64,000 nucleotides of DNA from an uncultured Candidatus Binatia bacterium (GTDB taxonomy: Bacteria > Desulfobacterota > Binatia > HRBIN30), in assembly GCA_964534275.1 (NCBI GenBank), contig CAZHQG010000010.1, positions 6,744 through 70,743 of the forward strand. The letters are read 5' to 3'. The translations under genes were made by a program, and so were the position numbers. Of the stretch, positions 14,721-53,678 are shown in pieces. The notes beneath the pieces were generated by a model. That model worked only from the letters and a program-made list of their open reading frames with translations. It made no database searches and was not told the origin of the DNA. Position 1 is the stretch's first letter. Every line of letters starts with the position of its first letter.

Positions 14721-14794
14721 ACCTGGCCATGAGCACGGTGTGGTAACTGCGCTGGCCTGGGCATCGTGGTCCTAGGCCAAGGAGCTGAAGACAC

Positions 14795-15976: not shown

Positions 15977-15977
15977 C

Positions 15978-23740: not shown

Positions 23741-23864
23741 AAATGGGCAGTCCTGGTTGTCACTCTCGCGCGCGGAGGTGCCACGGATCGATCGTCGGCG
23801 GTCTCCCCTGACGCCGAAACGATCCGCTCGTGCGTATTTTGCTCACACTACTATAAGGGCCGTC

Positions 23865-37749: not shown

Positions 37750-38020
37750 AGCTCCGCCCCGTGTGGGACGGGCTCCTCGACAAACGCGGCAAGAACCGTG
37801 GGATGTGAGCCTCAAAACGGCGCGCACCGAAGACCTGGAGGCATGCCCCCTCCCTACAAGCCGCAGCCGTACAAAACCGCAGAGCTCCTCCGTCAGGGGG
37901 TAAGCGGAGAAGCGACCCCCAGGGGGGTAGGTGCCAACTTCTCCCCCCGACTCCACCGAGACCAATCGATTGCTCCGATCGACGTGCGAAGCCCGTACGG
38001 GCCAACCCCGGATTTGCCCC

Positions 38021-38880
38021 GGATTTGGACACGCACAGAAGCGAACTGCGAACCTCTAAAATTTGGACACGCACGAAACCTGCGGCGGCCCACCGCCGCG
38101 CAGACTCCCCTCACTGGGCTCTCGCGGGCAGCTGCGGCAGAGGCACCCAACCCCACGTTCGAGCAAAGATTTGGACACACACCAAACGACGAGCGGGTTA
38201 GTCCGGAGGCACTCGAGAACACCGCCCCAACAGCACCGCGATTGGGGCCGGGGCCCGCCCCCCCGGCCCTCTTTCCGGAGCTTTCAACCTTCCTTACTTA
38301 TTGCCTCCGGTTCCGCCCTGGAGACCCAGTAGCCGCCAGCCAAACAATCCGGCCTTGGCCCGGGCGGACCCCACGGCACCAAAAACGGCCGCTCAAAATC
38401 GATCCCGTGCGTCGCCTCCGAGCGGCACGTCGCAAATCGTGTGTGTCCATAAACGAGGCCCCAGGGTGCAGCTCCCCGCAACTCGCCACAAATCAGGGGG
38501 TTGAGCGCGCGTACCAAATTTTGGTGTGTGTCCTCAAATTCTCTCACGTACCAAATTTTGGTGTGTGTCCTCAAATTCTCTCACGTACCAAATTTTGGTG
38601 TGTGTCCTCAAATTCTTCAGGTCCCAAAATCCCAAGTGCCTGGCTGGCCGCTGACCTAAGGTCGCCGTTTGATGTGTGTCCTGAATTGCATCCCTCCTAA
38701 TCAGTCCTCCGACGGCCATCGTTTGGTGTGTGTCCTGAATCTTCTCGGCGGGCGGCTGACGTACGGTCAAGGATTGGTGTGTGTCCTGAATTTTTCTCTC
38801 TGGCCGGGAGGGGACGAGTTACGGTCGTTCTTTCGTGTGTGTCCTGAATCTTCCCTGAATCTTCCTGTGAATTTTCCTTC
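38021..38880. repeat. Second cluster of the GGACACAC/GTGTGTCC-core repeat, with at least 11 copies. The first three (38.03-38.19 kb) are in one orientation and the rest in the opposite orientation.
   Basis: aaatttggacacgcac x2 and gatttggacacacaccaaacg, then tgtgtgtccataaacg, 3x accaaattttggtgtgtgtcctcaaattctctca, gatgtgtgtcctgaattgc, tttggtgtgtgtcctgaatcttc, gattggtgtgtgtcctgaattttt and tttcgtgtgtgtcctgaatcttc. It lies in the 1.37-kb non-coding gap upstream of the mevalonate genes. Confidence 0.65.
38509..38619. repeat. Perfect 37-bp tandem direct repeat, about 2.9 copies (cgtaccaaattttggtgtgtgtcctcaaattctctca).
   Basis: Copies at 38509-38545 and 38546-38582 are identical. The third copy (38583-38619) diverges only in its last roughly 6 nt. 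The units are contiguous with no spacers. Confidence 0.85.
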
Positions 38881-39019
38881 TGATGAATTTTCGTTGGTTT
38901 CTCTACGGTTTACGGCCGTCTTGAGGGGGCAGTCGGAAAGTAGCCGGAGGTCGTAGTCTCCTACTTCGGGCCGCTTGATTGACTGGTCAGGCTCGTGTAT
39001 GGGTTGCCCTTGACCACGA

Positions 39020-39069
39020 GGTTTATAGGATGCGGTTGATAGGGTCTGGTTTATATGGTTCGGTTTATA
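39020..39069 (+). promoter_or_regulatory. AT-rich element with three direct GGTTTATA repeats, about 50-100 nt upstream of the mevalonate operon. Candidate promoter or operator.
   Basis: ggtttataggatgcggttgatagggtctggtttatatggttcggtttatacc is markedly AT-rich against the GC-rich background, and it immediately precedes the start of the diphosphomevalonate decarboxylase gene. Confidence 0.25.
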
Positions 39070-39118
39070 CCTCTAGGTCAGTAACTCCCTGCGGGACAAG
39101 GCCCCGATCGGTGCTTCA

Positions 39119-40165
39119 TTGCGCGTACCGTCGGAGCAAGGAATGACGATGGCAGAGCGGAAACCGATAGCCCCCGGAAACCGCCTCGTGTGTGCCGAAG
39201 CACATCCGAACGTCGCCTTGGTGAAATATTGGGGAAAGCGTGACCGCCGGCTGAATCTGCCTTCCGTGGGCAGCATATCGCTTACACTCGACACGCTCTG
39301 TACCCGTGTCTCGGTACGTTCCGCGAATCGCGAAGCCGATGAGTTTTCCACGAACGGTAAGGTTGCCCCGCCTGGTGCTTTCGAGCAGCTCCAGGAGTAC
39401 CTGCAGTTCGTCCGCACACTAGCGGGTCGAAGCGAGCCGCTCGTCATCGAAACCCACAGCAACTTCCCGGTCGCCGCCGGTTTAGCGTCGTCTGCCTCGA
39501 TGTTTGCCGCGTTGGCCGTCGCTCTGAACGAGTTTTACGGCTTGGCACTCGCGCCTCGCGAGCTCACGGCCCTGGCTCGAAGAGGTTCAGGGTCAGCAGC
39601 TCGGTCCATCTTTGGAGGATTTGTCGAGTGGCACCGCGGCACGGCATCGGATGGCAGCGACTCCGTGGCAGAACCACTCGCTCCTGCCGAGGCTTGGCCA
39701 CTAGGAGTCGTCGTGGCCATTACCGACGTCCAGCCCAAATCGGTGTCCTCTCGCAACGGGATGGAGCATGCAGCGACGTCGCCCTTTTTCCCCCTTTGGG
39801 TTTCAGGACAAGAAGCCGACCTTGCTTCCGCGCGTGCCGCAATCGCCAACCGCGACCTCGAGGCTTTGGGACACATCGCCGAGCGGAATTGCCTAAAAAT
39901 GCACGCCGTTGCCTGGACCAGCACGCCGCCGCTGCTGTACTGGCGCCCCGCGACACTAGCGGCCATCGAGACGGTTCGCGCACTGCGCTCCGCTGGTGTC
40001 CCCGCATATTTCACCATCGATGCTGGCCCTCAGGTGAAAGTCCTCTGTCCTTTGGAACACCGCGAACGTGTCGCCGCTGCACTGCAAGAAACGCCCGGCA
40101 TCGTCCAGGTACTCCTTTCCCGACCGGGTTCCGGGGCCCGCCTGCTTTCGGAGGCTGGGACATGA
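39119..40165 (+). CDS. mvaD: Diphosphomevalonate decarboxylase.
   Basis: NVALVKYWGKRD...SLTLD, with GHMP-kinase-fold motifs typical of MVD. The start could be 39119 or the downstream ATG at about 39143 (MTMAERK). Confidence 0.8.
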   Translation: MRVPSEQGMTMAERKPIAPGNRLVCAEAHPNVALVKYWGKRDRRLNLPSVGSISLTLDTLCTRVSVRSANREADEFSTNGKVAPPGAFEQLQEYLQFVRTLAGRSEPLVIETHSNFPVAAGLASSASMFAALAVALNEFYGLALAPRELTALARRGSGSAARSIFGGFVEWHRGTASDGSDSVAEPLAPAEAWPLGVVVAITDVQPKSVSSRNGMEHAATSPFFPLWVSGQEADLASARAAIANRDLEALGHIAERNCLKMHAVAWTSTPPLLYWRPATLAAIETVRALRSAGVPAYFTIDAGPQVKVLCPLEHRERVAAALQETPGIVQVLLSRPGSGARLLSEAGT

Positions 40166-41184
40166 CCAGCCAATATTGCGCAGAAGCACCGGGCAAACTC
40201 TTCCTCCTCGGAGAGTACGCTGTGCTCGACGGTTCTCCCGCGATCGTCGCCGCAGTCGAGCCAAAGGTGCGGGTTGTCGCAGGATACAAAGGCACCCGTC
40301 AGAAACTGTCCATCGCAATACCCAGTTCTGGGGTTCACTTCACCGCGGACGTCCGGTCGCTGCCGCCCACCGGCCCCGGCCCCGTCGCGTTTGTGCTTGC
40401 GTGTTGCGCAAGCTGCCCAGAGGAAGAACGCCGCACCGTTCTGCCGGGACTCAACCTCGTCATCGAGTTCCCCCGAACCCAAGGGGTCCATGCAAAGCTA
40501 GGGCTTGGGGGCAGTGCAGCTTTGGTAGCCTCGGTCAGTGCTCTCCTCTTCGAGCTTGCTCATGGGCGTGGTCGCGCACAACAGCACAAGACGGAAGTGT
40601 TCCACCGCGCCCTCGCGGCGCACCGAGCTGCGCAGCAGGGGCGCGGCAGCGGGGCGGACGTGGCTGCGAGTGTGTTCGGCGGCCTGATCTTGTTTGAGAC
40701 CTCCAACGGGTCGGCCCCTCGCGTGGAACCGTTGCCGTGGCCCGAAAACCTTGCGCTCGCCACGTCGTGGAGTGGCCAGCCAGCTTCCACTGCCGAACTC
40801 ATCGGAACTTACTACAACAGTGTGCGCGATCACGCAGCTCTGCATCGCCAATTCCTGCGCAGTTCCGCGCTCGCCGTCGAAACATTCGCAACGGCAATCC
40901 GCTCCTGCAGCGATGCCGAGTCGGCCTGGCGTGCGGCCGCACCGGTGCTTCTCGAGTTCGCCCCAAAGCTCCGGCTTCCTTATCTCACCCCGGCACTCGC
41001 ACGCATCCTCGCCCTCGCCCAGTCACAGAACATCGTCGCAAAACCGTCTGGCGCCGGCGGTGGCGACTCGGCCGTCGCCCTCTGCCGCCCGGACCAGAAA
41101 GCTGCCTTGATCGAACTTTGGGAACGCAGCGGCTTTCCGTGTCCGGCGGTGTCGCCGGCAAAGGAAGGAGTTGTCTGTGGGTAA
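40162..41184 (+). CDS. mvaK2: Phosphomevalonate kinase (GHMP kinase).
   Basis: APGKLFLLGEYAVLDGSPAIV plus a GLGGSAALVASV ATP-binding loop. There is a 4-nt ATGA overlap with the MVD stop. Confidence 0.7.
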   Translation: MTSQYCAEAPGKLFLLGEYAVLDGSPAIVAAVEPKVRVVAGYKGTRQKLSIAIPSSGVHFTADVRSLPPTGPGPVAFVLACCASCPEEERRTVLPGLNLVIEFPRTQGVHAKLGLGGSAALVASVSALLFELAHGRGRAQQHKTEVFHRALAAHRAAQQGRGSGADVAASVFGGLILFETSNGSAPRVEPLPWPENLALATSWSGQPASTAELIGTYYNSVRDHAALHRQFLRSSALAVETFATAIRSCSDAESAWRAAAPVLLEFAPKLRLPYLTPALARILALAQSQNIVAKPSGAGGGDSAVALCRPDQKAALIELWERSGFPCPAVSPAKEGVVCG

Positions 41185-42271
41185 GCCACGCACGCACGTC
41201 TCCCCAACCGAACAAATCGCAGAGCGCAAGCGGTCGCACCTGGACTTGTGTGCGAACGCAGCCGTGGAACACCCAGAGAAGACAACCTTGTTTGAAGAAG
41301 TGGACTTCATCCACAACGCCTTGCCCGAGTTGGCTTTGGACGAAATCGATCTTTCCACCGAGTTCCTCGGCAAACGGCTTGCGGCACCATTTCTGATTAC
41401 GGGCATGACGGGCGGCACTGCGGACGCTTTCGCGATCAATCGCGATTTGGCTGCTCTCGCAGAACGCTGCCAAATTGCTTTCGGACTTGGAAGCCAGCGC
41501 GCGATGCAGCGCGACCCGAGTCTGGCATGGACGTACCAAGTCCGTGAGTTTGCACCCACAACGGTCGTTCTCGCGAACATCGGCCTCACGCAGGCGGCAA
41601 CGCAGCCCACGGAAGCACTGCGCGAGCTGTTGCAGCTCGTTGGCGCCGATGCGTTGTGCATTCACCTAAACCCGGCCCAGGAATTGATTCAACCGGAGGG
41701 CGACCGCGATTTCCGCAACGGTTACTCCGCGATCGAACGGGTGGTCCGCGAACTTGGCGCACCGGTGATCGTCAAGGAAACTGGCTGCGGCATTTCGACG
41801 GCCGTGGCCGCGAGGCTTCACGCCCTCGGCGTCGAGTACATCGACTTTTCAGGCGCTGGCGGGACTTCTTGGGTACGGGTGGAAAGCCTGCGCACTCAAG
41901 GCCGCGCCCACCGTCTGGGAGAGCTGTTTGCCTCTTGGGGCATCCCCACAGCTGCAGCCCTCGCAGCCGCACGACATTTGCCGCTCAAGCGCATCGCAAG
42001 CGGAGGACTCCGGAACGGACTCGACGCGGCCAAAGCCATCGCACTCGGCGCGGATCTGTGTGGCATGGCGCTGCCTGTGTTCCGCGCGTACCAGCAAGGC
42101 GGTCGCGAGGGGGCGGTTTCGTTCCTGCAGCAATGTACCGACGCCCTGCGCACGGCCATGCTGCTCACCGGTTCGGCATCGTTACGCGACTTGCAATCCC
42201 AGCCTGTCGTATTGGGGCCGCGACTCCAAACGTGGCTGAACACGTTGAACCAACTGCAGGGGAGGAAGTGA
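41171..42271 (+). CDS. fni: Isopentenyl-diphosphate delta-isomerase, type 2 (FMN-dependent).
   Basis: RKRSHLDLC...FEEVDFIHNALPELALDEIDLSTEFLGKRLAAPFLITGMTGG and a TIM-barrel FMN-binding C-terminus. Confidence 0.85.
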   Translation: MSVGKPRTHVSPTEQIAERKRSHLDLCANAAVEHPEKTTLFEEVDFIHNALPELALDEIDLSTEFLGKRLAAPFLITGMTGGTADAFAINRDLAALAERCQIAFGLGSQRAMQRDPSLAWTYQVREFAPTTVVLANIGLTQAATQPTEALRELLQLVGADALCIHLNPAQELIQPEGDRDFRNGYSAIERVVRELGAPVIVKETGCGISTAVAARLHALGVEYIDFSGAGGTSWVRVESLRTQGRAHRLGELFASWGIPTAAALAAARHLPLKRIASGGLRNGLDAAKAIALGADLCGMALPVFRAYQQGGREGAVSFLQQCTDALRTAMLLTGSASLRDLQSQPVVLGPRLQTWLNTLNQLQGRK

Positions 42272-42275
42272 CGCC

Positions 42276-43571
42276 ATGGAACCAAGAAACACAAACTCGC
42301 GCATCGAAGGATTTTACAAGCTGCCGCGAAAAGAACGGCTGGTCACCTTAGCCCGCATGGGTGGCCTGGAGGAAAACGAGGTGGCAGAACTGCTCAACCC
42401 CACGCCGCTACCGTTCGAAGTCGCTGAGCACATGATCGAGAACGCCATCGGAGTGCTCGGCTTGCCACTCGGGGTAGGGCTGAACTTTCTCATCAACGGC
42501 CGCGAGCGGCTCGTTCCGATGGCAATCGAGGAACCTTCTGTCGTAGCCGCCGCTAGCTTCGCCGCTCGGCTGGTCCGCGAAGCTGGCGGATTTTTTGCGG
42601 AAGCGGATCCTTCGCTGATGATCGGTCAAGTGCAGCTCCTGGGTATCCAAGACCTCACCGCTGCATGCGAACGACTGCAAGCTGCCACGGGGCGCATTTT
42701 GGCGCTGGCCAACTCGGTCCATCCGAACATGCTCAAACGCGGCGGAGGCGCGCGCAAGCTCGAGTTTCGCCCCTTGCCCGACACGCCCTGCGGGCCCATG
42801 CTCGTGGTGCACATTCTCGTGGACGTAGGCGATGCCATGGGGGCCAATGCCATCAACAGCATCGCCGAAACCGTGGCCCCTTTGCTGGAGGAAATCAGTG
42901 GCGGCGAAGCGCGCTTGCGGATTCTTTCCAACCTCGCCGACCAGCGCCTTGCCCGCGCCACGGCGCGCATCCCCTTTCATATCCTCGAGACCGAAAAATT
43001 CTCCGGCGAGCAGGTTGCTCGCCGAATCGAAGAAGCTTGGGCGTTCGCCTACGCCGACCCCTATCGTGCTGCGACTCATAACAAAGGTATCATGAATGGA
43101 ATCGACGCGGTTGCCCTTGCCACAGGGCAAGACTGGCGCGGGATCGAAGCAGGCGCCCACGCCTACGCAGCGCGCGACGGGCAGTATCGGCCGCTGAGCG
43201 AGTGGCGGGTCCACAACGGCGCGCTCGTGGGCACCATCGAGTTACCGCTCGCGGTGGGCACGGTGGGCGGCAACCTGGAATGCAACCCGCGAGCGAATTT
43301 CGGCCTCCGGCTCTTGCGCGCACGATCTGCACGCGACCTTGCAGCCGTCATGGCTGCGGTCGGCCTTGCCCAAAACCTGGCCGCTGTCCGCGCTCTCGCC
43401 ACCGACGGGATCCAACGCGGGCACATGGCTCTGCACGCTCGGGGGCTGGCTGTGGCGGCTGGGGCATCTGATGACATCGTCGATCAAGTGGTCGAGGAAC
43501 TCATCGCCAGCGGCGAGATCAAACTGAGCAAGGCCCGAGAAATTGTTGCCGCGCGCAAGCGTGCCGCATGA
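42276..43571 (+). CDS. mvaA: Hydroxymethylglutaryl-CoA reductase (class II-like).
   Basis: GFYKLPRKERL...ENAIGVLGLPLGVGLNFLINGRE...EEPSVVAAAS are conserved HMGR catalytic-domain blocks. Confidence 0.85.
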   Translation: MEPRNTNSRIEGFYKLPRKERLVTLARMGGLEENEVAELLNPTPLPFEVAEHMIENAIGVLGLPLGVGLNFLINGRERLVPMAIEEPSVVAAASFAARLVREAGGFFAEADPSLMIGQVQLLGIQDLTAACERLQAATGRILALANSVHPNMLKRGGGARKLEFRPLPDTPCGPMLVVHILVDVGDAMGANAINSIAETVAPLLEEISGGEARLRILSNLADQRLARATARIPFHILETEKFSGEQVARRIEEAWAFAYADPYRAATHNKGIMNGIDAVALATGQDWRGIEAGAHAYAARDGQYRPLSEWRVHNGALVGTIELPLAVGTVGGNLECNPRANFGLRLLRARSARDLAAVMAAVGLAQNLAAVRALATDGIQRGHMALHARGLAVAAGASDDIVDQVVEELIASGEIKLSKAREIVAARKRAA

Positions 43572-44563
43572 GGGAGTGCAGCGTGGCAGAGTCTCGCCGA
43601 GGCCGGGGGACTGCTTCCGGCAAAGTGATTTTGCTCGGAGAGCACGCGGTCGTGTACGGGTTTCCCGCGATCGCGCTGCCGATCCCACGTCAGGTAACGG
43701 TCGAGCTCTCCTTCCGTTCCGAACCCTCCGGGTGTGTCGGGTACGGCACACCGCCAGCTCCTCCTGAAGCTGCCACCATCACACTACCCGACCTCCTGCT
43801 CCACGCGGGCACTCGCCTCGGTGTCGACCCGTGCGACCTCGAAGCCTCTGTCGCCTCCGACATTCCGCCTGGCATGGGCCTCGGAAGTTCCGCTGCACTC
43901 AGCGTCGCACTGCTGCGAGCGCTGGCTGATCTCACCGGCGTGCACCTTGGTCTCGCCAACCTCAACGCGCACGCCTACGCCCTCGAGTGTCTTTTCCATG
44001 GCGAACCCTCGGGCGTGGACAATACGACCGTCACTTACGGCACACTGTTGCGGTTCGTGCGGGGCGCCTCTCCGGAGCCACTCGAGGCAGCCGCTCCCCT
44101 GCATCTTGCCGTGGTGCTCGGAAAGCAACCCCGTCGCACACGCGCAGTCGTGGCGCGCTTGAACGCACAGCGCCAGGCAACGCCCGCGGCGGTGGACCGT
44201 GCGTTTGCCGCGATCGGCGAGCTCGCGAACCATGCTGTAGAAGCGCTCCGTTCTGGCGATCATGCCCTGCTCGGCGCCTGCATGAACGAAAATCACGAAC
44301 TCTTGGGCGCACTGGGCGTGTCGACCGACGAGCTTGATGCGCTCGTGGCCGAAGCTCGGCGCGCAGGCGCATGGGGCGCAAAACTCACTGGGGGCGGCCG
44401 CGGGGGGGCCATCGTGTGCCTGTGCCCGACGAACCGACCTCAACTCCTACAACACTTTGAACGGAAGGGCGTGCAAGCGTTTGCTGTCGACTGGACCCCT
44501 TCTTCAAGAGGTGCGTATGAACGACATGTTGCAGAACTCCCCACTCCCGACCGCAACGCTTGA
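43568..44563 (+). CDS. mvk: Mevalonate kinase.
   Basis: SGKVILLGEHAVVYGFPAIALPI and GMGLGSSAALSVAL. There is a 4-nt overlap with the HMGR stop. Confidence 0.8.
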   Translation: MRECSVAESRRGRGTASGKVILLGEHAVVYGFPAIALPIPRQVTVELSFRSEPSGCVGYGTPPAPPEAATITLPDLLLHAGTRLGVDPCDLEASVASDIPPGMGLGSSAALSVALLRALADLTGVHLGLANLNAHAYALECLFHGEPSGVDNTTVTYGTLLRFVRGASPEPLEAAAPLHLAVVLGKQPRRTRAVVARLNAQRQATPAAVDRAFAAIGELANHAVEALRSGDHALLGACMNENHELLGALGVSTDELDALVAEARRAGAWGAKLTGGGRGGAIVCLCPTNRPQLLQHFERKGVQAFAVDWTPSSRGAYERHVAELPTPDRNA

Positions 44564-46523
44564 GGAATCTTCGGCGGGTTGGGAGACCAAGCTCGACGAA
44601 GCGATCCGGCGGACCCAAGCATTCCTCCTGCGCCGCCAACAGGCCGACGGTTACTGGCACTTTCCGCTGGAAGCCAACGTCACCATGGATGCGGAATATA
44701 TCTTCTTCAACCGTTTCATGGGTCGTGACGCGAGACGTCAAGAGGTGCGGGTCGTCGACCATATGTTTTCGACCCAAGCGTCGGACGGTTCGTGGTCGCT
44801 CTACCCCGGCGCCCCCGGTCATGTCAGCCTTACAATCGAAGCGTACTTCGCCCTGAAACTCGCCGGCATTTCTCCGCAAGAGGAGCGCTTGCAGCAGGCT
44901 GCACGCTTCATTCGCGCCCATGGAGGTCTGGCAAAGGCAGGTGTGTTCACACGCTGCTTTCTCGCCTACTTCGGACAGTTTCCGTGGTACGGGCTGCCGG
45001 CGATGCCGGTCGAGCTCATTCTCCTGCCCCCGTGGTTTCCGATCAACATTTACGCGTTTTCGAGCTGGGCACGGGAAACCGTCGTGCCGTTGACAATTCT
45101 CATGGCCTTGAAACCTCAGGTTCCGCTGGCTCCAGGCGAGGGAGTCGACGAGTTGTGGCTCTCTCCGCCTACGCCCCAGGCGCTTGCCTTTCCCGGCAGT
45201 CGCGAGTGGATCAGCTGGAAGAACTTTTTCCTCGCCGTCGATTCCACCTTGAAGTTTCTTAGCCGCACGATCCCGTGGGCGCCTTTGCGACAGCGCGCGC
45301 TCCGGCGAGCAGAGCAGTGGATCTTGGAGCGCCAAGACCGCAACGGTGGCTGGGGCGGCATCCAACCACCCATGCTGAACTGCGTGATGGCGCTCAAAAC
45401 CCTCGGTTATCCCGATGACCATCCGGTGATTCGCAAAGGCATTCAGGCAATCGACGACTTCCTCATTGCCGACGGCGACTCTTTGATGATGCAGCCCTGC
45501 GTCTCTCCCACGTGGGATACCGCGCTCGGCGCAAAAGCCCTGCTCGACTCTGGCCTCAGCCCCGATCACCCTGCGCTGGCACGCGCTGCGGAGTGGCTCA
45601 TTCGCAATCAGATCTTCAAACCTGGCGACTGGAGCGTGTACAACCCGGATTTAGATCCCGGTGGCTGGGCGTTCGAATTTGCCAACGACTGGTATCCCGA
45701 CGTGGATGACACCGCGGTCATCCTCATGCAGTTGCAACGCATCGCCATCAAGGACCGCCACGCTCGACAACGTGCCATTGCGTACGGCCTGCAGTGGGCC
45801 CTTGGCATGCAAAGCCGCAACGGCGGGTGGGCCGCCTTCGATACCAACAACGACAGCGAGTTTCTCAACCAGATCCCCTTCGCGGACATGGAGGCGATGA
45901 TCGACCCGCCCACGGAAGACCTGACCGGGCGCTTACTGGAACTCATGGGGAACTACGGGTTCGACTTGCAAAGCTCCCGTGCACGCAAGGCACATCGGTT
46001 CTTGCTCCGCACCCAGCGCAGCGACGGCTCTTGGTGGGGGCGCTGGGGTGCCAACTTTATCTACGGCACGTGGTCGGTCCTCGCTGGCCTGCGGGCCATT
46101 CATGACGACTTGCACGCCCCGCACATCCGCCGCGCCGTTGCCTGGCTCAAGCAACACCAAAACTCAGACGGTGGTTGGGGAGAAACCCTCGCCTCTTACG
46201 ACAACGAGGCACTCGCGGGACGAGGAGAATCCACTCCCTCGCAAACGGCTTGGGCAATCCTCGGCTTGCTTGCCGGAGAAGACGGGGTGAGTCGCGAGGT
46301 TCTGCGCGGAGTCGAGTATCTCGTGCGGACACAAAACCCCGACGGCAGTTGGGACGAGCGATTGTGGACCGGCACCGGTTTCCCTCGGCACTTTTACCTT
46401 CGTTACGATGGCTACCGCATTTACTTCCCCCTGATGGCGCTGGGGCAAGTCCGCCAGCGCTTGCGGGAACTTCGCGGGGCACGCGCCCGAACTGCCGCGG
46501 AGTCGGCTGTCCACTCGCGTTAG
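44517..46523 (+). CDS. shc: Squalene-hopene cyclase.
   Basis: Multiple QW motifs (QxxDGxW / GGW) and the DxDDTA catalytic motif (WYPDVDDTAV). Start refined to MNDMLQNS within ORF 44334..46523. Confidence 0.9.
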   Translation: MNDMLQNSPLPTATLEESSAGWETKLDEAIRRTQAFLLRRQQADGYWHFPLEANVTMDAEYIFFNRFMGRDARRQEVRVVDHMFSTQASDGSWSLYPGAPGHVSLTIEAYFALKLAGISPQEERLQQAARFIRAHGGLAKAGVFTRCFLAYFGQFPWYGLPAMPVELILLPPWFPINIYAFSSWARETVVPLTILMALKPQVPLAPGEGVDELWLSPPTPQALAFPGSREWISWKNFFLAVDSTLKFLSRTIPWAPLRQRALRRAEQWILERQDRNGGWGGIQPPMLNCVMALKTLGYPDDHPVIRKGIQAIDDFLIADGDSLMMQPCVSPTWDTALGAKALLDSGLSPDHPALARAAEWLIRNQIFKPGDWSVYNPDLDPGGWAFEFANDWYPDVDDTAVILMQLQRIAIKDRHARQRAIAYGLQWALGMQSRNGGWAAFDTNNDSEFLNQIPFADMEAMIDPPTEDLTGRLLELMGNYGFDLQSSRARKAHRFLLRTQRSDGSWWGRWGANFIYGTWSVLAGLRAIHDDLHAPHIRRAVAWLKQHQNSDGGWGETLASYDNEALAGRGESTPSQTAWAILGLLAGEDGVSREVLRGVEYLVRTQNPDGSWDERLWTGTGFPRHFYLRYDGYRIYFPLMALGQVRQRLRELRGARARTAAESAVHSR

Positions 46524-46538
46524 CAGGGAGAGCTCACC

Positions 46539-48293
46539 GTGCCTTCGAGCGCCGAACTGGAAGCCGCGTACGCGCACTGCTGGCAAATCGCCTGCTCGCA
46601 CTACGAGAACTTCCCCATTGGCTCCTGGTTGCTCCCCCGTCATTTGCGGCGAGCGTTGGCAGCAATTTATGCGTTCTCACGCGTGGCGGACGACCTTGCC
46701 GACGAAGGCACGCGTCCCTCGCACGAACGACTGGCTGCCCTCGACGAGTGGGAACGACACCTCGAAGCGTGCTTTGCCGGCACGCCCACCCACCCAGTGT
46801 TTGTGGCGCTCGCCGATACCGTCCGGCAGTTCCAGCTACCCATCGAACCCTTTCGAGCCCTTCTCACGGCGTTCCGCTACGACGCCGACTTCCGGCCGTT
46901 CGCGACCTTTGCAGACTTGCTCGCGTATTGCCGTCACTCCGCAAATCCGGTCGGACATTTGGTGCTGTACTTGTTCGGCTATCGCGACGCGGAACGCCAA
47001 GCCTTGGCGGACGACATCTGCACCGGTCTCCAGCTCGCAAACTTTTGGCAAGACCTGGCGGTGGATGCCGCGAAAGGGCGCGTGTACTTACCGCTCGCGG
47101 ACTTGCAAGAGTGGCACCTCTCGCCCGAGATGCTCCTGGCCGGCAACCCACCACGCGAGCAATTACGGTCGCTCCTCGTCGTCCAGGTGGAGCGGGCGCG
47201 GAGTTTCCTCACGCGTGGCCTGGCCCTCGCCCGCCTCGTGGAACCCTCGCTCGCGCGCGAAGTCCGCTTGTTCGCTCATGGCGGGCTGGCCATTCTGGAT
47301 CGGATTGCTGCTGCGGACTACGATGTCTGGAGCCAGCGCCCTCGGCTTTCCCGGTGGGACAAAGCCCGCCTGCTCCTGCGCTTTGCACGGCCCATGGTCG
47401 GATCCACAACGAGTACGCGGGAGACCACTTCGGGTTCCTTACAACGGGACTATGCGTACTGCGCCGAGGTGACACGCCGCAGCTCGAGCAACTTCTACTA
47501 CGCCTTTCACCTGCTTCCGCCCGAGAAGCGGCAAGCACTTTGTGCCGTGTACGCTTTTTGCCGCTTCGTCGACGACATCGCCGATCGCAGCGACCCGAAC
47601 TGGTCGCCACGGGATGCGATCGCCCGCTGGCGCGAAGAAGTGGCGGCCGTGTATGCAGGGCGCCCCACACACCCCATCAGCCGAGCATTGGCGGACGCCG
47701 TGCAACGCTATCCCCTGCAGCAGCGATACTTCCAAGAACTGATCACCGGTGTGGAAATGGACCTAACGCGCCGCTCGTACCAGACGTGGGCCGACTTGCG
47801 CCAGTACTGCTACCGCGTGGCAAGCACGGTCGGCCTGCTTTGCATCGAAATTTTCGGGTACGAAAATCCTTCTGCCCGCCAATATGCCGTCGATTTGGGC
47901 ATTGCGTTTCAACTGACCAACATTCTCCGCGACGTCCGGGAAGACGCTGAACGCGGTCGCGTGTATCTGCCGCGAGCCGACTTGGAACAATTCGACTGCT
48001 CGGAACGCGACTTACTGAGCGGGCGCTACTCACCCCAGGTGGCTGCGTTGCTCGCCTTCGAGTGTGGCCGGGCACGTGCGTTTTATCTCCGCGCACGCTC
48101 TGCGCTCGCTCCCGAAGATCGCCGCACTTTGGCCCCGGCGGAAGCCATGCGATTGATTTACCAGCGCTTACTGGGCCGCATCGAAGCGCAAAATTTCAAC
48201 GTGTTCGGGCCGCGCGTCACCCTGCCTCGTTACGAAAAACTCTCGCTGGCGCTCGCCGCCTGGGGCCGTTCGCACTTGTCTCGTGCATTCTGA
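46539..48293 (+). CDS. hpnC/hpnD: Squalene/phytoene-synthase-family bidomain protein: an HpnC-like (hydroxysqualene synthase) N-terminal half fused to an HpnD-like (presqualene diphosphate synthase) C-terminal half.
   Basis: Two complete trans-isoprenyl diphosphate synthase head-to-head domains, each with YAFxRxxDDxAD and a second Asp-rich motif (AIYAFSRVADDLADE ... NILRDVREDAERGRVYLP, then CAVYAFCRFVDDIADR ... NILRDVREDAERGRVYLP). The 584-aa frame has no stop between them. Confidence 0.75.
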   Translation: MPSSAELEAAYAHCWQIACSHYENFPIGSWLLPRHLRRALAAIYAFSRVADDLADEGTRPSHERLAALDEWERHLEACFAGTPTHPVFVALADTVRQFQLPIEPFRALLTAFRYDADFRPFATFADLLAYCRHSANPVGHLVLYLFGYRDAERQALADDICTGLQLANFWQDLAVDAAKGRVYLPLADLQEWHLSPEMLLAGNPPREQLRSLLVVQVERARSFLTRGLALARLVEPSLAREVRLFAHGGLAILDRIAAADYDVWSQRPRLSRWDKARLLLRFARPMVGSTTSTRETTSGSLQRDYAYCAEVTRRSSSNFYYAFHLLPPEKRQALCAVYAFCRFVDDIADRSDPNWSPRDAIARWREEVAAVYAGRPTHPISRALADAVQRYPLQQRYFQELITGVEMDLTRRSYQTWADLRQYCYRVASTVGLLCIEIFGYENPSARQYAVDLGIAFQLTNILRDVREDAERGRVYLPRADLEQFDCSERDLLSGRYSPQVAALLAFECGRARAFYLRARSALAPEDRRTLAPAEAMRLIYQRLLGRIEAQNFNVFGPRVTLPRYEKLSLALAAWGRSHLSRAF

Positions 48294-48301
48294 GGAGCGC
48301 C

Positions 48302-49684
48302 GTGTCGAGCAAAACGCTTCCCCACTTGCCGAGGCCAAGGTTGCCTGTCGCCGTGATTGGCGGCGGTTTCGCGGGACTCGCGGCGGCCGTGGAACTGGCG
48401 CAGTCGGGCCTGCCCGTGGTGGTGCTGGAAGCTCGGCGGAAATTGGGCGGTCGGGCTGTTTCGTTTGTCGACGCGGCAACCGGCGACGAAATCGACAACG
48501 GGCAGCATGCCCTGATGGGTTGCTACCACGAAACCTTGCGCTTCCTCGAGCTCATCGGGTCGGGAACGAACCTTGTCCGCCAGGACGTTTTGCGCGTGCC
48601 GTACGTCGACCTTGCCAACGGCCGGCACGCGGTGCTCGAGGCGGGGCGTTGGCCGAGCCCGCTCCACATGGCTTCCGCGATTGCTCGCTTTCCCCTGTTG
48701 GAAGCACGGCAACGGCTAGAAGCCCTGTGGGGAGGGCTCAAATGTATGGCTCTGCGCCAGCGCAACGATCCCGTGTTGGCACACATCACGGTGCAAGAGC
48801 TCCTGGATCTCTGCCGACAGTCGAGCGAAACGCGCGCCAAACTTTGGCATCCGATCGTCATCGCGACGCTCAACGAATTGCCGGCACGTGCTGCCGCTCG
48901 GCCCTTCGTCGAGGTGCTGGCGCGCGCATTTTTTTCCGGCCAGCGCGACTCCCAGTTCGTTTTTGCGCGGGTTCCGTTGAACCGCCTTTACGTGCATCAA
49001 GCTACGCAACACCTGACCAAGTTGGGAGCAGTGGTCCACACAGCCGCCGTCGTCGAACGCATTTTGGTCGACGGCGATCGTGCACTCGGCGTGCGACTCC
49101 GTGATGGCTCGTTCGTGCCTGTCGCAGGGATCGTTTGCGCAGTTCCCGTCGACGTAGCACAGCGACTCCTCGCGCCGATCGGAGTGTCCATTCCCACTGT
49201 ACACTTTAGCCCGATTGTGTCCGTGCACCTGTGGTTCCGGGAGCGCCCACCGCTGCCAGCTTTCGTTGGCTTGCTCGGAAGCCACACGCAGTGGGTGTTC
49301 GACCGCTCCTCACTGTGGCGGGAACCACGCCCGTCGGCCGCTTCAGGGACGTATCTCGCTAGCGCCGTCATCAGCGCCGCCCACGAAGAAGTGCATTGGA
49401 CCGACGAGCGGCTTGTTACGACCGTCACCGAGGAACTGCGGCGTGCGTTTCCTGCCCTTGCTGACGTACGCTTGCACCACGCCAGCGTCGTGCGAGAAAA
49501 GCGCGCCACGCCCTCGCTCACGCCGGAATTCGAGCGGCAGCGCCCCGGAGCTCGCACGCCCATCAAGAACCTCGTGCTCGCGGGCGACTGGACCAATACC
49601 GGCTTGCCAGCCACCATCGAAAGCGCGGTCGCCAGCGCCCGCGAGGCCGTGCGCAACGTTGTCTTGCAACTCGTACACGCGTAG
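48302..49684 (+). CDS. hpnE: Hydroxysqualene dehydroxylase (FAD-dependent amine-oxidase family).
   Basis: VAVIGGGFAGLAAAVELAQSGLPVVVLEARRKLGGRA is the FAD dinucleotide fold. It sits directly after hpnC/hpnD. A GTG start is inferred in the ORF frame. Confidence 0.75.
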   Translation: MSSKTLPHLPRPRLPVAVIGGGFAGLAAAVELAQSGLPVVVLEARRKLGGRAVSFVDAATGDEIDNGQHALMGCYHETLRFLELIGSGTNLVRQDVLRVPYVDLANGRHAVLEAGRWPSPLHMASAIARFPLLEARQRLEALWGGLKCMALRQRNDPVLAHITVQELLDLCRQSSETRAKLWHPIVIATLNELPARAAARPFVEVLARAFFSGQRDSQFVFARVPLNRLYVHQATQHLTKLGAVVHTAAVVERILVDGDRALGVRLRDGSFVPVAGIVCAVPVDVAQRLLAPIGVSIPTVHFSPIVSVHLWFRERPPLPAFVGLLGSHTQWVFDRSSLWREPRPSAASGTYLASAVISAAHEEVHWTDERLVTTVTEELRRAFPALADVRLHHASVVREKRATPSLTPEFERQRPGARTPIKNLVLAGDWTNTGLPATIESAVASAREAVRNVVLQLVHA

Positions 49685-49697
49685 GATGAGGCAACGG

Positions 49698-50525
49698 ATG
49701 AAGACCTTTGCCGTGTTTGCTGCCTTGCCCTGGGAGTGTACGGCAGCGGTACAATGGCTCCAGCAAGTCGAGCGCGGGCGGACGAGCGGGTTCGTTTGGT
49801 GGCAGGGACGCGCCGCAGATCATCGCGTGCGGGTGGTCCGAACTGGCATCGGTGCTGAACGCGCTGCAGCCGCCGTCCGTGACACGTTTTCCCAATTCCC
49901 GTTCGAGCTCGCTGTGAGCACAGGATGTGCCGGTGGGCTCGTTCCCGCTCTGGAACCAGGGGCACTGGTCGTTGCGACGGAAGTCGTTTGCGACCACGAC
50001 GGAACCCGTTACGCGACGGCACCCCTTGACCAAGACGCGCTCCCCCCGAACCACTGGAAACTGTCCCTGCATTTCGGGCGACAACTGTGCGTGCGCTCCG
50101 CGCTCTCGACGGCGGCGGAAAAACAAGCTGCGGGCGTGCGCTTCGAAGCTCTTGCGGTCGACATGGAAAGCGCTGGCGTTGCCCGGAGTTCCACAGAACT
50201 CGGTGTGCCGTTCGTGAGCGTCCGGGCCATTCTCGACCCAACGGCGGCGGCCCTCCCGGGTACGGGCACGCTGCTCGATCCGACGACCGGACAGGTTCGC
50301 CCCTGGCAACTGTTCCGTGCCTTGGCAACGGGCGGCGGCGAGCTCTGGAGCGAACTCCGCGCCCTACAGCACTTCAAGCGCCAAGCACAAACCGCGCTTG
50401 GAATTTTTTTCCGTGTGTATTTTTCGAGCCTCGCGGGCAACACGCAAACCGCTTCCAACCGCGAAGCTCGCCATCATCACGAGGAGGAACCATGCGATTT
50501 CCGTTGCACATCACGACCGACATGA
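49698..50525 (+). CDS. hpnG: Hopanoid-associated phosphorylase/nucleosidase (PNP_UDP_1 family).
   Basis: AVSTGCAGGL...ALAVDMESAGVA...VRAILD is the MTA/SAH-nucleosidase-like signature. Start refined to MKTF within ORF 49215..50525. The 3' end overlaps hpnH. Confidence 0.7.
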   Translation: MKTFAVFAALPWECTAAVQWLQQVERGRTSGFVWWQGRAADHRVRVVRTGIGAERAAAAVRDTFSQFPFELAVSTGCAGGLVPALEPGALVVATEVVCDHDGTRYATAPLDQDALPPNHWKLSLHFGRQLCVRSALSTAAEKQAAGVRFEALAVDMESAGVARSSTELGVPFVSVRAILDPTAAALPGTGTLLDPTTGQVRPWQLFRALATGGGELWSELRALQHFKRQAQTALGIFFRVYFSSLAGNTQTASNREARHHHEEEPCDFRCTSRPT

Positions 50526-51520
50526 TTCGCTGGCAGCTCAAGAACTGGTGGCGCGGCAACAAGCGCTACCCGTATGTGTTGATGCTCGAGCCGCTGCATA
50601 CCTGCAATCTGGCCTGCATTGGCTGCTCGCCGGAACGGTACAACGGCGATCTCAAAGATCGCCTTCCGCTCGAACAGTGCCTTCAAGCTGTGGACGAGTG
50701 CGGCGCTCCGGTGGTTTCGATTTGCGGTGGAGAGCCCACGATCTACCCAGAGCTTCCAGAACTCGTGGAGGGAATCATTGCGCGGAAGCGGCACATTTAC
50801 CTGTGCACGAACGGCATTTTGCTGGAACGCTTCTACCAGCGGTCGCGTCCCCACAAGCGACTATCGATCAATGTCCATCTAGACGGCTTACGAGACACCC
50901 ACGATTTTGTCGTGAATCGCAAAGGGGTGTTCGACAAGGCCATTGCCATGATCCGCGAAGGTAAGCGCCGTGGCTACACAGTGTGCACGAACACGACGAT
51001 TTACCGGGAAACGGACATGGACGAAATCGAGGCCATGTGCGCGTTGCTCGCTGAAATTGGGGTCGACGGCATTCTGCTTTCCCCGGGCTACCACTACGAG
51101 AGCCTGACCGGCGATCATTTCCTTTACAAAAACGAGATCCACGAAAAGTTCCGCCGCGTGCTCGCGCTCGCGGAAAAATACCCGGTGTCGTCCACCCCTT
51201 TATTCCTCCAGTTCGCTGCGGGGCAGCGCGACTACCCGTGTACGCCGTGGGGCAACCCAACCCGCACCCCAAAAGGCTGGAAAGGCCCCTGCTATCTGAT
51301 CGCCGGCGCGTACTATCCGACCTGGAAAGAGTTTTGGCACGGCGTGGACTGGGAGTACTGGGAATCGCGGCGCGACCCGCGGTGCCAAAACTGCCTCATG
51401 CACTCTGGCTTCGAACCGTCGGTCATTCGCAAACTCGGGGAAAATCCGCGGGACGTGTGGACGATGATCAAATGGAACTTCTCCAATCCGCCGAAGCCCG
51501 CGCCAGCTGCAGGGCGCTAA
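50492..51520 (+). CDS. hpnH: Adenosylhopane synthase, a radical SAM enzyme.
   Basis: The CNLACIGC radical-SAM cluster motif (C-x3-C-x2-C) lies within MRFPLHITTDMIRWQLKNWW...YVLMLEPLHTCNLACIGCS, and a GAGGAGG RBS is 6 nt upstream. Confidence 0.85.
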   Translation: MRFPLHITTDMIRWQLKNWWRGNKRYPYVLMLEPLHTCNLACIGCSPERYNGDLKDRLPLEQCLQAVDECGAPVVSICGGEPTIYPELPELVEGIIARKRHIYLCTNGILLERFYQRSRPHKRLSINVHLDGLRDTHDFVVNRKGVFDKAIAMIREGKRRGYTVCTNTTIYRETDMDEIEAMCALLAEIGVDGILLSPGYHYESLTGDHFLYKNEIHEKFRRVLALAEKYPVSSTPLFLQFAAGQRDYPCTPWGNPTRTPKGWKGPCYLIAGAYYPTWKEFWHGVDWEYWESRRDPRCQNCLMHSGFEPSVIRKLGENPRDVWTMIKWNFSNPPKPAPAAGR

Positions 51521-51537
51521 ATCCGTCGCTCCGCCCC

Positions 51538-51578
51538 GGAAGTTTCCGCGTGCAAGCACCAGCGCGTCGGACTTCCGT
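51538..51578. terminator. Imperfect GC-rich hairpin between the convergent hpnH and kup genes. Possible bidirectional terminator.
   Basis: cggaagtttccgcg...cgcgtcggacttccg, arms of about 13 bp with a bulge, no T-tract. Confidence 0.25.
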
Positions 51579-51734
51579 GCTCCGTGCCGCTGGGCAGGTG
51601 CAGCCCTCCCAGCAACACCTCGATCCGGAGGGCGGCGGATCGGCCTTTGTGGCGATCCCAGCAAAACCAGCACTGGAACCGCCGCCCACCGGCGTGTCCT
51701 CTTTTTGGGTGCAAGGGGTTAACAAAACCCGCGG

Positions 51735-53678
51735 TTACAGCTCCAACTGCGTACCGAGTTCCACAACGCGGTTTGCGGGGATCTCGAAAAACGCTGCGGC
51801 ACTGGGGGCGTTTCGGGCCAGGAGGATGTATAGGCGCTTCCGCCATTTGGCCATGGCCGAGCGACCGGTTGGCAGCAACGTCTCCCGACCCAAGAAGAAC
51901 GTCGTTGTCATCATGTCAAACGCCAAGCCCTTCGCCTGACAAAGACGCAGCACGAGGGGGACGCGTGGCTTTTCCATGAACCCGAAACGCGCCACGATGC
52001 GGTAAAATCCCGCACCAAGCTCTTGCACCTCGATTTTTTCCTTGTCCGGCACTTCGGGGCGCTTTTCAGCGAGAATCGAGAGCAACACGACGCGCTTGTG
52101 CAACGTGCGCGTATGCTTGAAGTAGTGCAATAACACCGCTGGAATGCCTCGGGGCGTCGATGTCATCACGATCGCTGTCCCCTCCACGCGCACCACCCGC
52201 TGGTTCTCCACATCCGCCAAAAACGCCCGCTCGTCCACGCTTGCACGTTCCAGCATCGCAGCTACCTCCGCCCGGCCCCGCTTCCACGTCGTGAGAATGG
52301 TGAACACCACCACGCCCACGGTAAGTGCAAACCAGCCCCCGTGAGCGAGCTTGGCCAGGTTGGCAATGAGGAAAGACAAGTCGAACAACAAAAACAGTGC
52401 GGCGATCAGCCCAGCCGCCGGAAGCGACCACGCCCAACGCTCTCGGGTCACCGCATAAAACAAAAGCGTCGTGGCTGTCATCGTTCCCGTCACTGCCAAC
52501 CCGTACGCGCCAGCCAGGGCACTCGACGATCCGAAGCCCACGACCAGAAGCAAGCACAAGGTGCCAAGCGCTACGTTGACTTGGGGGATGTAAATTTGCC
52601 CGGCTTGAGTCTCCGAAGTGTGAATAATGTTGAACCGGGGCAGGTATCCAAGTTGGGACGCTTGGTGAGTGAGGGAAAAGGCCCCCGAGATCAAAGCTTG
52701 CGAGGCAATAATTGTTGCCAAGGTTGCCAGCGCGACCAACGGATAGAGCATCCACGCGGGCGCCAGCTCGAAGAAGGGGTGGTTTACTGTACTTCCTCTG
52801 GCCAGCAACAACGCACCTTGGCCAAAGTAATTGAGCAACAGCGCAGGAAACACGAGCGCATACCAGCCCACGCGAATCGGCCGGGGGCCAAAGTGACCCA
52901 TGTCTGCATACAACGCTTCTCCGCCGGTGATGCACAATACGACCGAACCCAAGATGAGAAACCCGTGCACACCATTGCGAACAAAAAACTCGAGCCCGTA
53001 CCACGGATTCAACGCGTGCCAAACCGAAAGTTCCGCATGCGGTTGCTGCACAATGGCACGCAAGCCAAGCGCCCCGATCACCAGAAACCAAACCAACATG
53101 GTCGGCCCGAATACGGCCCCGAGACCTCCGGTGCCGTGACGCTGGACAGCAAACAGCAACACTAAAATGGCCGCAGAAATCGGCACCACCAGTGACTCGA
53201 ACGCATGCGTAGCCACGTTGAGCCCCTCGACAGCCGAGAGCACGGAGATCGCGGGGGTAATAATGCCATCTCCGTACAACAGCGCAGCACCAAACAAGCC
53301 GCACGAGATCAGAACCAAGCGCGAGAACGGCACGGTGCCCTCCCGAGGCACGACCAATGCCAGCAAAGCCAAAATGCCCCCCTCCCCCTCGTTATCGGCG
53401 CGCATGACAAAGACGAGATATTTGATCGAGATCACCACCGTCAGCGACCAAAACACCAGCGACAACACGCCCACCACGTTCGCGGGGGTGACGGCTACCG
53501 CATGCGGTCCCACGAAGCACTCGCGCACGGCATACAAGGGCGACGTTCCAATGTCGCCAAACACAACCCCCAAGGCAGCTAAGGCCAGTTGCAGGAGAGG
53601 AGATTCGCGGTGCGCTGCCTTCGTGCCTGCAGGCACACCGCCAAAGGTCGCCGAGTCCGCGGTCGTGGGACTGCTCAT
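51735..53678 (-). CDS. kup: KUP/HAK/KT-family potassium uptake transporter.
   Basis: LGVVFGDIGTSPLYA N-terminal motif and 12 predicted TM segments. Start refined to MSSPTTADS within ORF 51735..53807. Confidence 0.85.
   Translation of the reverse strand: MSSPTTADSATFGGVPAGTKAAHRESPLLQLALAALGVVFGDIGTSPLYAVRECFVGPHAVAVTPANVVGVLSLVFWSLTVVISIKYLVFVMRADNEGEGGILALLALVVPREGTVPFSRLVLISCGLFGAALLYGDGIITPAISVLSAVEGLNVATHAFESLVVPISAAILVLLFAVQRHGTGGLGAVFGPTMLVWFLVIGALGLRAIVQQPHAELSVWHALNPWYGLEFFVRNGVHGFLILGSVVLCITGGEALYADMGHFGPRPIRVGWYALVFPALLLNYFGQGALLLARGSTVNHPFFELAPAWMLYPLVALATLATIIASQALISGAFSLTHQASQLGYLPRFNIIHTSETQAGQIYIPQVNVALGTLCLLLVVGFGSSSALAGAYGLAVTGTMTATTLLFYAVTRERWAWSLPAAGLIAALFLLFDLSFLIANLAKLAHGGWFALTVGVVVFTILTTWKRGRAEVAAMLERASVDERAFLADVENQRVVRVEGTAIVMTSTPRGIPAVLLHYFKHTRTLHKRVVLLSILAEKRPEVPDKEKIEVQELGAGFYRIVARFGFMEKPRVPLVLRLCQAKGLAFDMMTTTFFLGRETLLPTGRSAMAKWRKRLYILLARNAPSAAAFFEIPANRVVELGTQLEL

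Follow-up and report, generated by a model that had tools for sequence, protein, structure and literature searches.

A mevalonate-hopanoid gene block in a Candidatus Binatia genome and its counterparts across the class

In a 64,000-nucleotide stretch of contig CAZHQG010000010.1, which originates from an uncultured, hot-spring-type Candidatus Binatia bacterium, ten intact genes for the lower mevalonate (MVA) pathway and for hopanoid biosynthesis are packed on the plus strand at positions 39143-51520. This whole stretch is referred to as the window, and positions are counted from its first letter. The order mvaD-pmk-fni-hmgr-mvk-shc-hpnCD-hpnE-hpnG-hpnH was assigned by Pfam and NCBIfam profile searches together with start refinement, and it bore out the ten-gene plus-strand order that had been read from the sequence beforehand (the original prediction). 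We consider it reasonably likely that the block is a single, vertically inherited, operon-like isoprenoid-hopanoid unit of an HRBin30-like lineage of Candidatus Binatia. The clustering is more than chance, because about 25 species-level genomes share this order and all ten genes are under purifying selection. The predicted genes are listed below, with the bit score of the diagnostic NCBIfam model and its curated cut-off.

39143-40165, plus strand: mvaD, diphosphomevalonate decarboxylase, 340 aa (TIGR01240, 266.6 bits; cut-off 171)
40162-41184, plus strand: pmk, phosphomevalonate kinase (PMK)-like GHMP kinase, 340 aa (TIGR01220, 113 bits; below the cut-off of 165.7)
41177-42271, plus strand: fni, type 2 isopentenyl diphosphate (IPP):dimethylallyl diphosphate (DMAPP) isomerase, 364 aa (TIGR02151, 385.8 bits; cut-off 281.3)
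42276-43571, plus strand: hmgr, class II 3-hydroxy-3-methylglutaryl-coenzyme A (HMG-CoA) reductase (HMGR), 431 aa (TIGR00532, 415.5 bits; cut-off 260)
43568-44563, plus strand: mvk, mevalonate kinase, 331 aa (TIGR00549, 242.7 bits; cut-off 163)
44517-46523, plus strand: shc, squalene-hopene cyclase (SHC), 668 aa (TIGR01507, 778 bits; cut-off 431)
46539-48293, plus strand: hpnCD fusion, 584 aa (HpnC half at about residues 1-285, HpnD half at about residues 300-584)
48302-49684, plus strand: hpnE, hydroxysqualene dehydroxylase, 460 aa (TIGR03467, 395 bits; cut-off 283)
49698-50525, plus strand: hpnG-like purine nucleosidase/phosphorylase, 275 aa (TIGR03468, 111 bits; below the cut-off of 187)
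50492-51520, plus strand: hpnH, radical-SAM adenosylhopane synthase, 342 aa (TIGR03470, 384.5 bits; cut-off 225)

From mvaD to hpnH, the junctions measure -4, -8, +4, -4, -47, +15, +8, +13 and -34 nt, where negative values denote overlaps. All ten genes lie on one strand, and the distances between them stay short or negative throughout, from -47 to +15 nt. This was in agreement with the overlaps of 4-47 nt and gaps of 16 nt or less described earlier, the refined gaps being no longer than 15 nt. Start codons were picked by Shine-Dalgarno-like sequences, which precede nine of the ten starts, and they agreed with independent gene calls on six metagenome contigs carrying the same cluster. Position 39119, previously given as the start of the block, is the first TTG of the mvaD open reading frame (ORF), whereas the ATG at 39143 is the likelier start because GGAG precedes it. 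The 4-nt overlaps of mvaD with pmk and of hmgr with mvk both read ATGA, and the GTG start of fni has the Shine-Dalgarno-like GGAAGGAG 6 nt upstream. The 47-nt overlap of mvk with shc is supported by the N-terminus of SHC, which aligns from residue 1 in relatives. Since the GC content of the block (0.61-0.64) is similar to that of its flanks, a recent import is argued against; this composition, together with the order kept across the class, ruled out a recent horizontal island.

Predicted enzymes and strain variation

The mvaD product carries the Pfam domains MVD-like_N and MDD_C, and its best match among solved structures is the diphosphomevalonate decarboxylase (MDD) 6n0z (4.5e-75), with MDD structures spanning 1e-60 to 1e-75. 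Models for the decarboxylases of alternative routes scored far below their cut-offs, at 163 against 475 bits for NF040704 (phosphomevalonate decarboxylase) and at 38 against 560 bits. On these scores, mvaD is assigned to the diphosphomevalonate decarboxylases rather than to the phosphomevalonate or bisphosphomevalonate decarboxylases of alternative routes. The adjoining PMK-like protein, which is distinct from Mvk, has the N- and C-terminal GHMP domains in Pfam, and PMK is its top NCBIfam model. In the Protein Data Bank (PDB) it matched 3k17 (Lin0012) over its full length (2.8e-14) and the Streptococcus pneumoniae PMK 1k47 (8e-5). The place of pmk between mvaD and fni is conserved, a GHMP kinase being found there even in the most divergent clade. 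This kinase is probably the phosphomevalonate kinase. For HMGR, the Pfam HMG-CoA_red domain matched at 1.2e-107.

Among the hopanoid genes, shc encodes a protein with DVDDTA, the DxDD protonation motif, at residue 395 and with QW-type motifs. The HpnC (hydroxysqualene synthase) half of the fusion scored 504.5 bits against a cut-off of 250 with TIGR03464 over residues 20-281, and the HpnD (presqualene diphosphate synthase) half 517.4 bits against 279 with TIGR03465 over residues 312-575. Two Asp-rich motifs are present in each half, and the N-terminal half matched PDB entry 4hd1, 'squalene synthase HpnC', at 1.7e-57. HpnE has a Pfam Amino_oxidase domain, and HpnC, HpnD and HpnE each lie above the NCBIfam equivalog cut-off. 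HpnCD also matches the cyanobacterial phytoene synthase model (382 bits, below its cut-off of 550) and HpnE a phytoene desaturase model (89 bits, below its cut-off of 569). The HpnG-like protein contains the Pfam domain PNP_UDP_1; HpnG is its top NCBIfam model, and its closest PDB entries are methylthioadenosine/S-adenosylhomocysteine (MTA/SAH) nucleosidases at about 3e-11. Its gene overlaps hpnH by 34 nt, and a homologue adjoins hpnH in many relatives. We regard it as the probable adenosylhopane nucleosidase. HpnH combines Radical_SAM and DUF3463 domains and has the cluster motif CNLACIGC (CX3CX2C) at residue 38.

In an assembly collection, 55 blocks are indexed with exactly this HMGR protein; 22 contigs were read, and the six that were fetched all carry the same cluster. 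Compared with these six strains, 0.2-0.8% of the bases of the ten genes differ, without a single indel, and the ratio of nonsynonymous to synonymous polymorphism (pN/pS) over the ten genes is 0.08-0.15. Nonsynonymous changes among the six strains number zero in HMGR, zero in HpnH and at most one in HpnCD, while HMGR is 89% identical to that of the next species. All ten genes are thus under purifying selection. A pseudogenised or otherwise non-functional block, the outcome that the original prediction had named as speaking against itself, was excluded by the lack of frameshifts, the intact motifs and the pN/pS of about 0.1.

Distribution in Binatia and the slot between shc and hpnC

To place the block among relatives, we collected 80 SHC loci in an SHC protein scan, with one genome per GTDB species, and mapped the window proteins onto these loci. 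The closest SHC matches, 79-80% identical, belong to a Candidatus Binatia metagenome-assembled genome (MAG) and to 'Bacterium HR30', the namesake of order HRBin30, which has genomes from thermal springs (PMC8262859). Most other matches come from Binatia MAGs that are filed under assorted older names. The order mvaD-pmk-fni-hmgr-mvk-shc-hpnC/D-hpnE-(hpnG)-hpnH was found in about 25 of the 80 loci, down to an SHC identity of 57%. The outgroup loci from Chloroflexi, Acidobacteria and Cyanobacteria have shc and hpn genes and no MVA genes. On this distribution, the MVA-hopanoid linkage is old and conserved across a large part of the class Binatia, and is therefore not an accident of this genome.

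The position between shc and hpnC proved to be variable. In the clade of this window shc is directly followed by hpnCD and the slot is empty, whereas in 20 loci a gene for an HMG-CoA synthase (HMGS) of 400-420 aa sits there. The N- and C-terminal Pfam domains of this HMGS are above their thresholds, and its full-length match to TIGR01835 (340 bits) is just below the cut-off of 360. Eleven genes in the order mvaD-pmk-fni-hmgr-mvk-shc-hmgs-hpnCD-hpnE-hpnH-hpnG were found by independent gene calls in loci L157 and L158, and L164 matches them as far as hpnE, except that its hpnC and hpnD are unfused; the junctions in both versions are mostly short overlaps or gaps of a few nucleotides. As hmgs lies between shc and hpnC in sister lineages, the two pathways are interleaved and not merely abutted, and the clade of this window appears to have lost hmgs from the slot or relocated it. 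The original prediction, which held that HMGS and thiolase are absent from the block and must be encoded elsewhere, was correct about the absence, both in a scan of the ORFs and, for HMGS, in a tblastn search of the window with Binatia HMGS, which gave no match. That HMGS lies elsewhere agrees with its absence from both block and window here, but in sister lineages the gene belongs to the cluster itself.

In a further 27-28 loci, the slot is occupied by dxr, the gene for the committed enzyme of the methylerythritol phosphate (MEP) pathway (505 bits with TIGR00243; cut-off 316). None of these 27-28 loci has MVA genes within 10 kb, and no dxr was found in the MVA-type loci. In a neighbour-joining SHC tree, which is a gene tree without support values and not a species tree, the loci with dxr fall into two clades, sister to each other, that are nested among those of the MVA type. 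By order, HRBin30 has the MVA type with a slot lacking hmgs, Candidatus Binatus/Binatales the MVA type with hmgs, and UTPRO1 the dxr type. On our reading, the C5 pathway would have been exchanged at this locus at least once, with the hopanoid genes tied to whichever C5 pathway the lineage uses. We put forward tentatively, as a possibility that falls short of an even chance, that hopanoid synthesis in Binatia is hard-wired to the only C5 pathway of the cell, through an ancestral supra-operon that underwent in-place exchange and whose slot holds either hmgs (MVA) or dxr (MEP). If so, the cluster would be the sole isoprenoid source in a Gram-negative-type bacterium, and the locus would be a natural record of the replacement of MVA by MEP, or the reverse.

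HpnC and HpnD share a single open frame in 23 loci and are encoded by separate genes in 28, the latter including a few outgroups. Among the Binatia-type loci, which account for 22 of the 23 fusions (with the six strain copies of this cluster), the fused form occurs in only part of the tree; a locus of Acidobacteria gp2 (L082) is also fused. An apparent fni-shc-hpnCD fusion of 1660 aa in L080 was rejected as an artefact, being a long stop-free alternative frame in high-GC DNA, with the genes in different frames.

Two kinds of deviating loci were also observed. In one dxr-type clade (L040, L043, L046-L051, L053, L055, L070, L071), shc-dxr is accompanied by a single HpnD-like gene, and neither hpnC nor hpnE was detectable nearby, which points to squalene synthesis by one enzyme or to a degenerate HpnCDE set. 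Reduced clusters occur among L018, L020, L021, L023, L068 and L076, L080 and L084, and L074 and L083. One variant reads hmgr-shc-hmgs-hpnD-hpnE-hpnH, with no kinases or decarboxylase nearby, a second hpnG-mvaD-fni-shc and a third fni-shc. It would seem that different lineages dismantled the cluster, or assembled it, step by step.

Boundaries, proposed pathway and alternative explanations

The features that bound the block are the following.

36088-37749, plus strand: S49 peptidase gene, followed by a 1.4-kb spacer before mvaD
38975-39142, plus strand: conserved promoter-proximal region before mvaD, near-invariant among the six strains
51521-51734, no strand assigned: structured spacer of 214 nt between hpnH and kup (RNA fold of -99.1 kcal/mol, z = -2.6 against shuffles)
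51735-53807, minus strand: kup, K+ transporter gene, the convergent next gene on the strand opposite to hpnH

In the same six-strain alignment, the DNA farther upstream of 38975-39142 is rich in indels. Inside the near-invariant region, four GGTT(T/G)ATA units recur with a 14-nt period at 39020-39069. Three GGTTTATA units with the same 14-nt period lie about 75-100 nt before mvaD in loci L007 (4557-4592) and L009 (4554-4589); the MvaD proteins of these loci are only about 60% identical to that of the window, yet the upstream GGTTTATA tandem is kept. Altogether, the GGTT(T/G)ATA tandem was found about 75-120 nt before mvaD in three species; it is invariant among strains, and the 64-kb window has no other copy. 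We regard it as a candidate for an operator or a promoter element; the unit itself most likely begins directly upstream of mvaD. The ORF at 37798-38700 (300 aa) was considered as an eleventh gene or upstream regulator and was rejected. It has no Pfam match, and because repeat-unit indels break its frame among strains, it is taken to be non-coding repeat DNA. At the other end, a weak terminator-like hairpin with a T-run is located at 51680-51694, and the transcription unit likely ends after hpnH, within the spacer at 51521-51734. A strong internal terminator was not found, the scan giving 10 weak sites compared with 16 expected by chance in shuffled sequence. The natural reading, and that of the original prediction, is that precursor supply would be co-transcribed with hopanoid synthesis. 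It is based on the overlapping stop and start codons, the Shine-Dalgarno-like sequences before nine of the ten starts, the lack of a strong internal terminator, the conserved promoter-proximal element upstream of mvaD and the class-wide conservation of the order.

The data show the identities, intactness and spacing of the genes, the purifying selection on them and the conserved order; what the enzymes do, their expression as one transcript, the role of MVA as the only route and the product are inferred. HMG-CoA would be supplied by a synthase and a thiolase encoded outside the block and would be reduced to mevalonate by HMGR. Mvk and the PMK-like kinase would carry out the two phosphorylations of mevalonate, after which decarboxylation by MvaD would give IPP, to be equilibrated with DMAPP by the type 2 isomerase (IDI-2). 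Farnesyl diphosphate (FPP) would come from an FPP synthase encoded outside the block. The fused HpnC-HpnD and HpnE would then convert FPP via presqualene diphosphate and hydroxysqualene to squalene, which SHC would cyclise to the C30 hopene or hopanol. HpnH would add the 5'-deoxyadenosyl group of S-adenosylmethionine (SAM) to yield adenosylhopane, and the HpnG-like nucleosidase would remove adenine to give ribosylhopane, the precursor of bacteriohopanepolyols. One promoter region directly upstream of mvaD would drive all ten genes, with partial translational coupling. The mevalonate genes are most likely the general C5 route of the lineage and not an extra, hopanoid-dedicated copy.

Several observations weigh against this reading of the block. 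Only eight of the ten proteins pass the NCBIfam curated cut-offs, the PMK-like and HpnG-like proteins falling below them. A consensus scan of 37700-52200 recognised no sigma-70-like promoter, and internal promoters may exist. The scan of the window, which covered its roughly 48 major ORFs, found no gene for HMGS, thiolase, FPP (polyprenyl) synthase or the MEP pathway. The absence of an FPP synthase, which is needed between IPP/DMAPP and HpnD, had been omitted from the original prediction. The HMGS of this organism was not located by a homologue search and context look-ups (P0004, P0101 and P0117), which gave other organisms only, two of which have hmgs inside the cluster; nor did the metagenome loci adjoining the window contain an HMGS. 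The SHC tree, moreover, lacks support values and does not represent a species tree.

Some of these observations would suit an arrangement in which the MEP pathway serves the housekeeping isoprenoids and the MVA set is a dedicated auxiliary supply that boosts hopanoid flux, as in Streptomyces. The MVA set is not self-sufficient because HMGS is absent from the block, and its genes adjoin those for one specific end product. Moreover, MVA clusters are joined to terpenoid or meroterpenoid clusters in streptomycetes, for example nap with its 'mev pathway' (PMC4650096), and bacteria with both pathways exist, amounting to about 2.4% of surveyed species (PMC13001223). We nevertheless consider an auxiliary supply unlikely. 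Unlike patchy accessory clusters, the block is conserved class-wide and under strong purifying selection, with an HMGR that lacks nonsynonymous changes among strains and is 89% identical to that of the next species; its composition is native, and MVA genes and dxr are mutually exclusive at the locus across the 80 genomes. Alternatively, mvaD-mvk and shc-hpnH could be separate transcription units with internal promoters in coding sequence, their adjacency reflecting history or shared regulation. Relatives do split at the mvk/shc seam, some having only hmgr, fni or mvaD-fni before shc, many relatives have shc-hpn genes without MVA genes, and the promoter scan, as mentioned, recognised no promoter anywhere. 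Against this stand the 47-nt overlap of mvk with shc here and the overlap or abutment of these genes in relatives, the place of hmgs downstream of shc in sister lineages, which puts MVA genes on both sides of shc, and the lack of a convincing internal terminator. Two separate units are thus, in our view, rather improbable, somewhat more so than an auxiliary supply.

The proposed end product can also be questioned: synthesis could stop at the C30 hopene, or the HpnG-like protein and HpnH could use another substrate, in favour of which stands the score of the HpnG-like protein below the HpnG cut-off. In line with this, none of the later hopanoid-tailoring genes hpnI, J, K, O, P, R and N was seen among the major ORFs of the window. 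However, HpnH clearly exceeds its equivalog cut-off and has the radical-SAM motif, hpnH is kept beside hpnE or hpnG across relatives, and HpnH and HpnG represent the two known first steps of side-chain extension (PMC5462960). A product other than a bacteriohopanepolyol therefore seems very improbable, and a single operon-like unit leading to bacteriohopanepolyols is the reading that we prefer.

Upstream of the unit, we observed a second kind of repeat. The motif GTGYGTGTCCWNAAW has 13 copies in the window compared with 0.11 expected, all within two intergenic clusters, one at 38020-38849 upstream of the mevalonate-hopanoid unit and one at 23252-23739 between a dTDP-glucose-dehydratase-like gene and a SAM synthetase gene. 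In these clusters, minus-strand copies lie to the left and plus-strand copies to the right, and strains with 99% identity elsewhere differ in copy number. Many more such arrays turned up in a metagenome scan, on contigs from the same genome or from related ones (L088, L097, L104, L108, L112, L118, and also L124, L142, L152, L153 and L155). These arrays are mostly located 100-400 nt before ORF starts and point at the ORFs, in about 17 of 23 cases by rough ORF calls. The motif thus looks like a dispersed promoter-proximal repeat family. The idea that the GTGTGTGTCC arrays serve to regulate the hopanoid operon (and SAM synthetase) in particular was dropped, as the metagenome scan placed the same arrays before many genes of the same or related genomes.

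The SAM synthetase gene at 23598-25061 (plus strand) encodes an archaeal-type enzyme in a bacterial genome (Pfam PF01941, 1.9e-119; NF003363, 439 bits, below the cut-off of 557). The gene probably begins only after the repeat copies at 23596-23739, and the window showed no MetK of the classical bacterial type. Elsewhere, five consecutive long ORFs of 416, 354, 456, 474 and 824 aa at 863-8419 (minus strand) have no Pfam match at all, and an intact PrkA-DUF444-SpoVR triad at 12738-17411 (plus strand) constitutes an ordinary-looking stress module of the yeaG-yeaH-ycgB type. The left end of the window adjoins the 41-kb metagenome contig Ga0209276_100637, which has further repeat arrays. Rfam and tRNA scans of the window gave no hits.

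Relation to known systems

The literature searched yielded no paper connecting mevalonate genes with a hopanoid cluster or treating either of them in Binatota, and the main genomic survey of Binatota is silent on isoprenoid precursors, squalene and hopanoids (PMC8262859). Fusion of hpnC with hpnD was already known, as were hopanoid clusters containing MEP genes, whereas a hopanoid cluster interleaved with MVA genes was not found in that literature. The present analysis adds the taxonomic position, the depth to which the arrangement is conserved, the interleaving of hmgs and the alternation of hmgs and dxr. Binatia occur widely in soils, sediments and hot springs, and the clusters predict a hitherto unrecognised source of hopanoids, including extended C35 forms. 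Hopanoid-making Binatia would bear on the interpretation of hopane biomarkers. The alternation of hmgs and dxr at one slot offers a clean natural case for studying the exchange of MVA and MEP pathways in bacteria, and the versions with 10-11 genes would be compact natural modules leading from HMG-CoA (or acetoacetyl-CoA) to hopanoids, with a potential use in engineering.

The same survey inferred lycopene or neurosporene synthesis for every order of Binatota, HRBin30 among them (PMC8262859). Because HpnCD and HpnE match phytoene synthase and desaturase models below the cut-offs, some of the 'crtB/crtI' carotenoid calls in Binatota may in fact concern squalene-synthesis genes, on which the survey's inference may partly rest, and KEGG-style annotation could label the HpnCD and HpnE genes crtB and crtI.

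With respect to squalene synthesis, all three predicted activities of the three-enzyme HpnC/HpnD/HpnE route, which is credited to Pan et al. 2015 in PMC5462960, are encoded in the block, two of them in fused form. Fused HpnCD is known from subdivision 2 Acidobacteria, some Actinobacteria and Alphaproteobacteria (PMC5462960). As in Binatia, these fusions are single polypeptides of roughly double length in which HpnC forms the N-terminal and HpnD the C-terminal part, the difference being the phylum.

Known hpn and hop clusters resemble the Binatia block in that hpnCDE, shc, hpnH and hpnG are clustered with genes that feed the pathway. The hop cluster of Streptomyces coelicolor includes dxs and an ispG-like gene, and the hpn clusters of Zymomonas and Rhodopseudomonas include ispH. 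In subdivision 1 Acidobacteria, an ispA-shc-hpnH cluster B and a shc-hpnH-ispH linkage have been described (PMC5462960). The precursor genes linked in these known clusters are thus MEP genes or ispA, whereas the Binatia block has five MVA genes and no ispA. The Binatia relatives with hmgs have six MVA genes that flank shc on both sides, again unlike the known hpn and hop clusters.

The six-gene MVA clusters of Streptomyces share with Binatia the enzyme set, including the type 2 isomerase and the class II HMGR, and the core order mvaD-pmk-fni-hmgr. In Streptomyces strain CL190, the order of the mevalonate cluster is mk-mdpd-pmk-idi2-hmgr-hmgs. In Binatia, mvk instead follows hmgr, shc precedes hmgs in the relatives, and hmgs is missing from the block of this window. 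The Streptomyces clusters also adjoin genes for terpenoid products (PMC4650096), as does the Binatia block. The predicted product in Binatia, however, is a membrane lipid and the arrangement is class-wide, whereas the Streptomyces clusters serve secondary metabolites and are patchily distributed.

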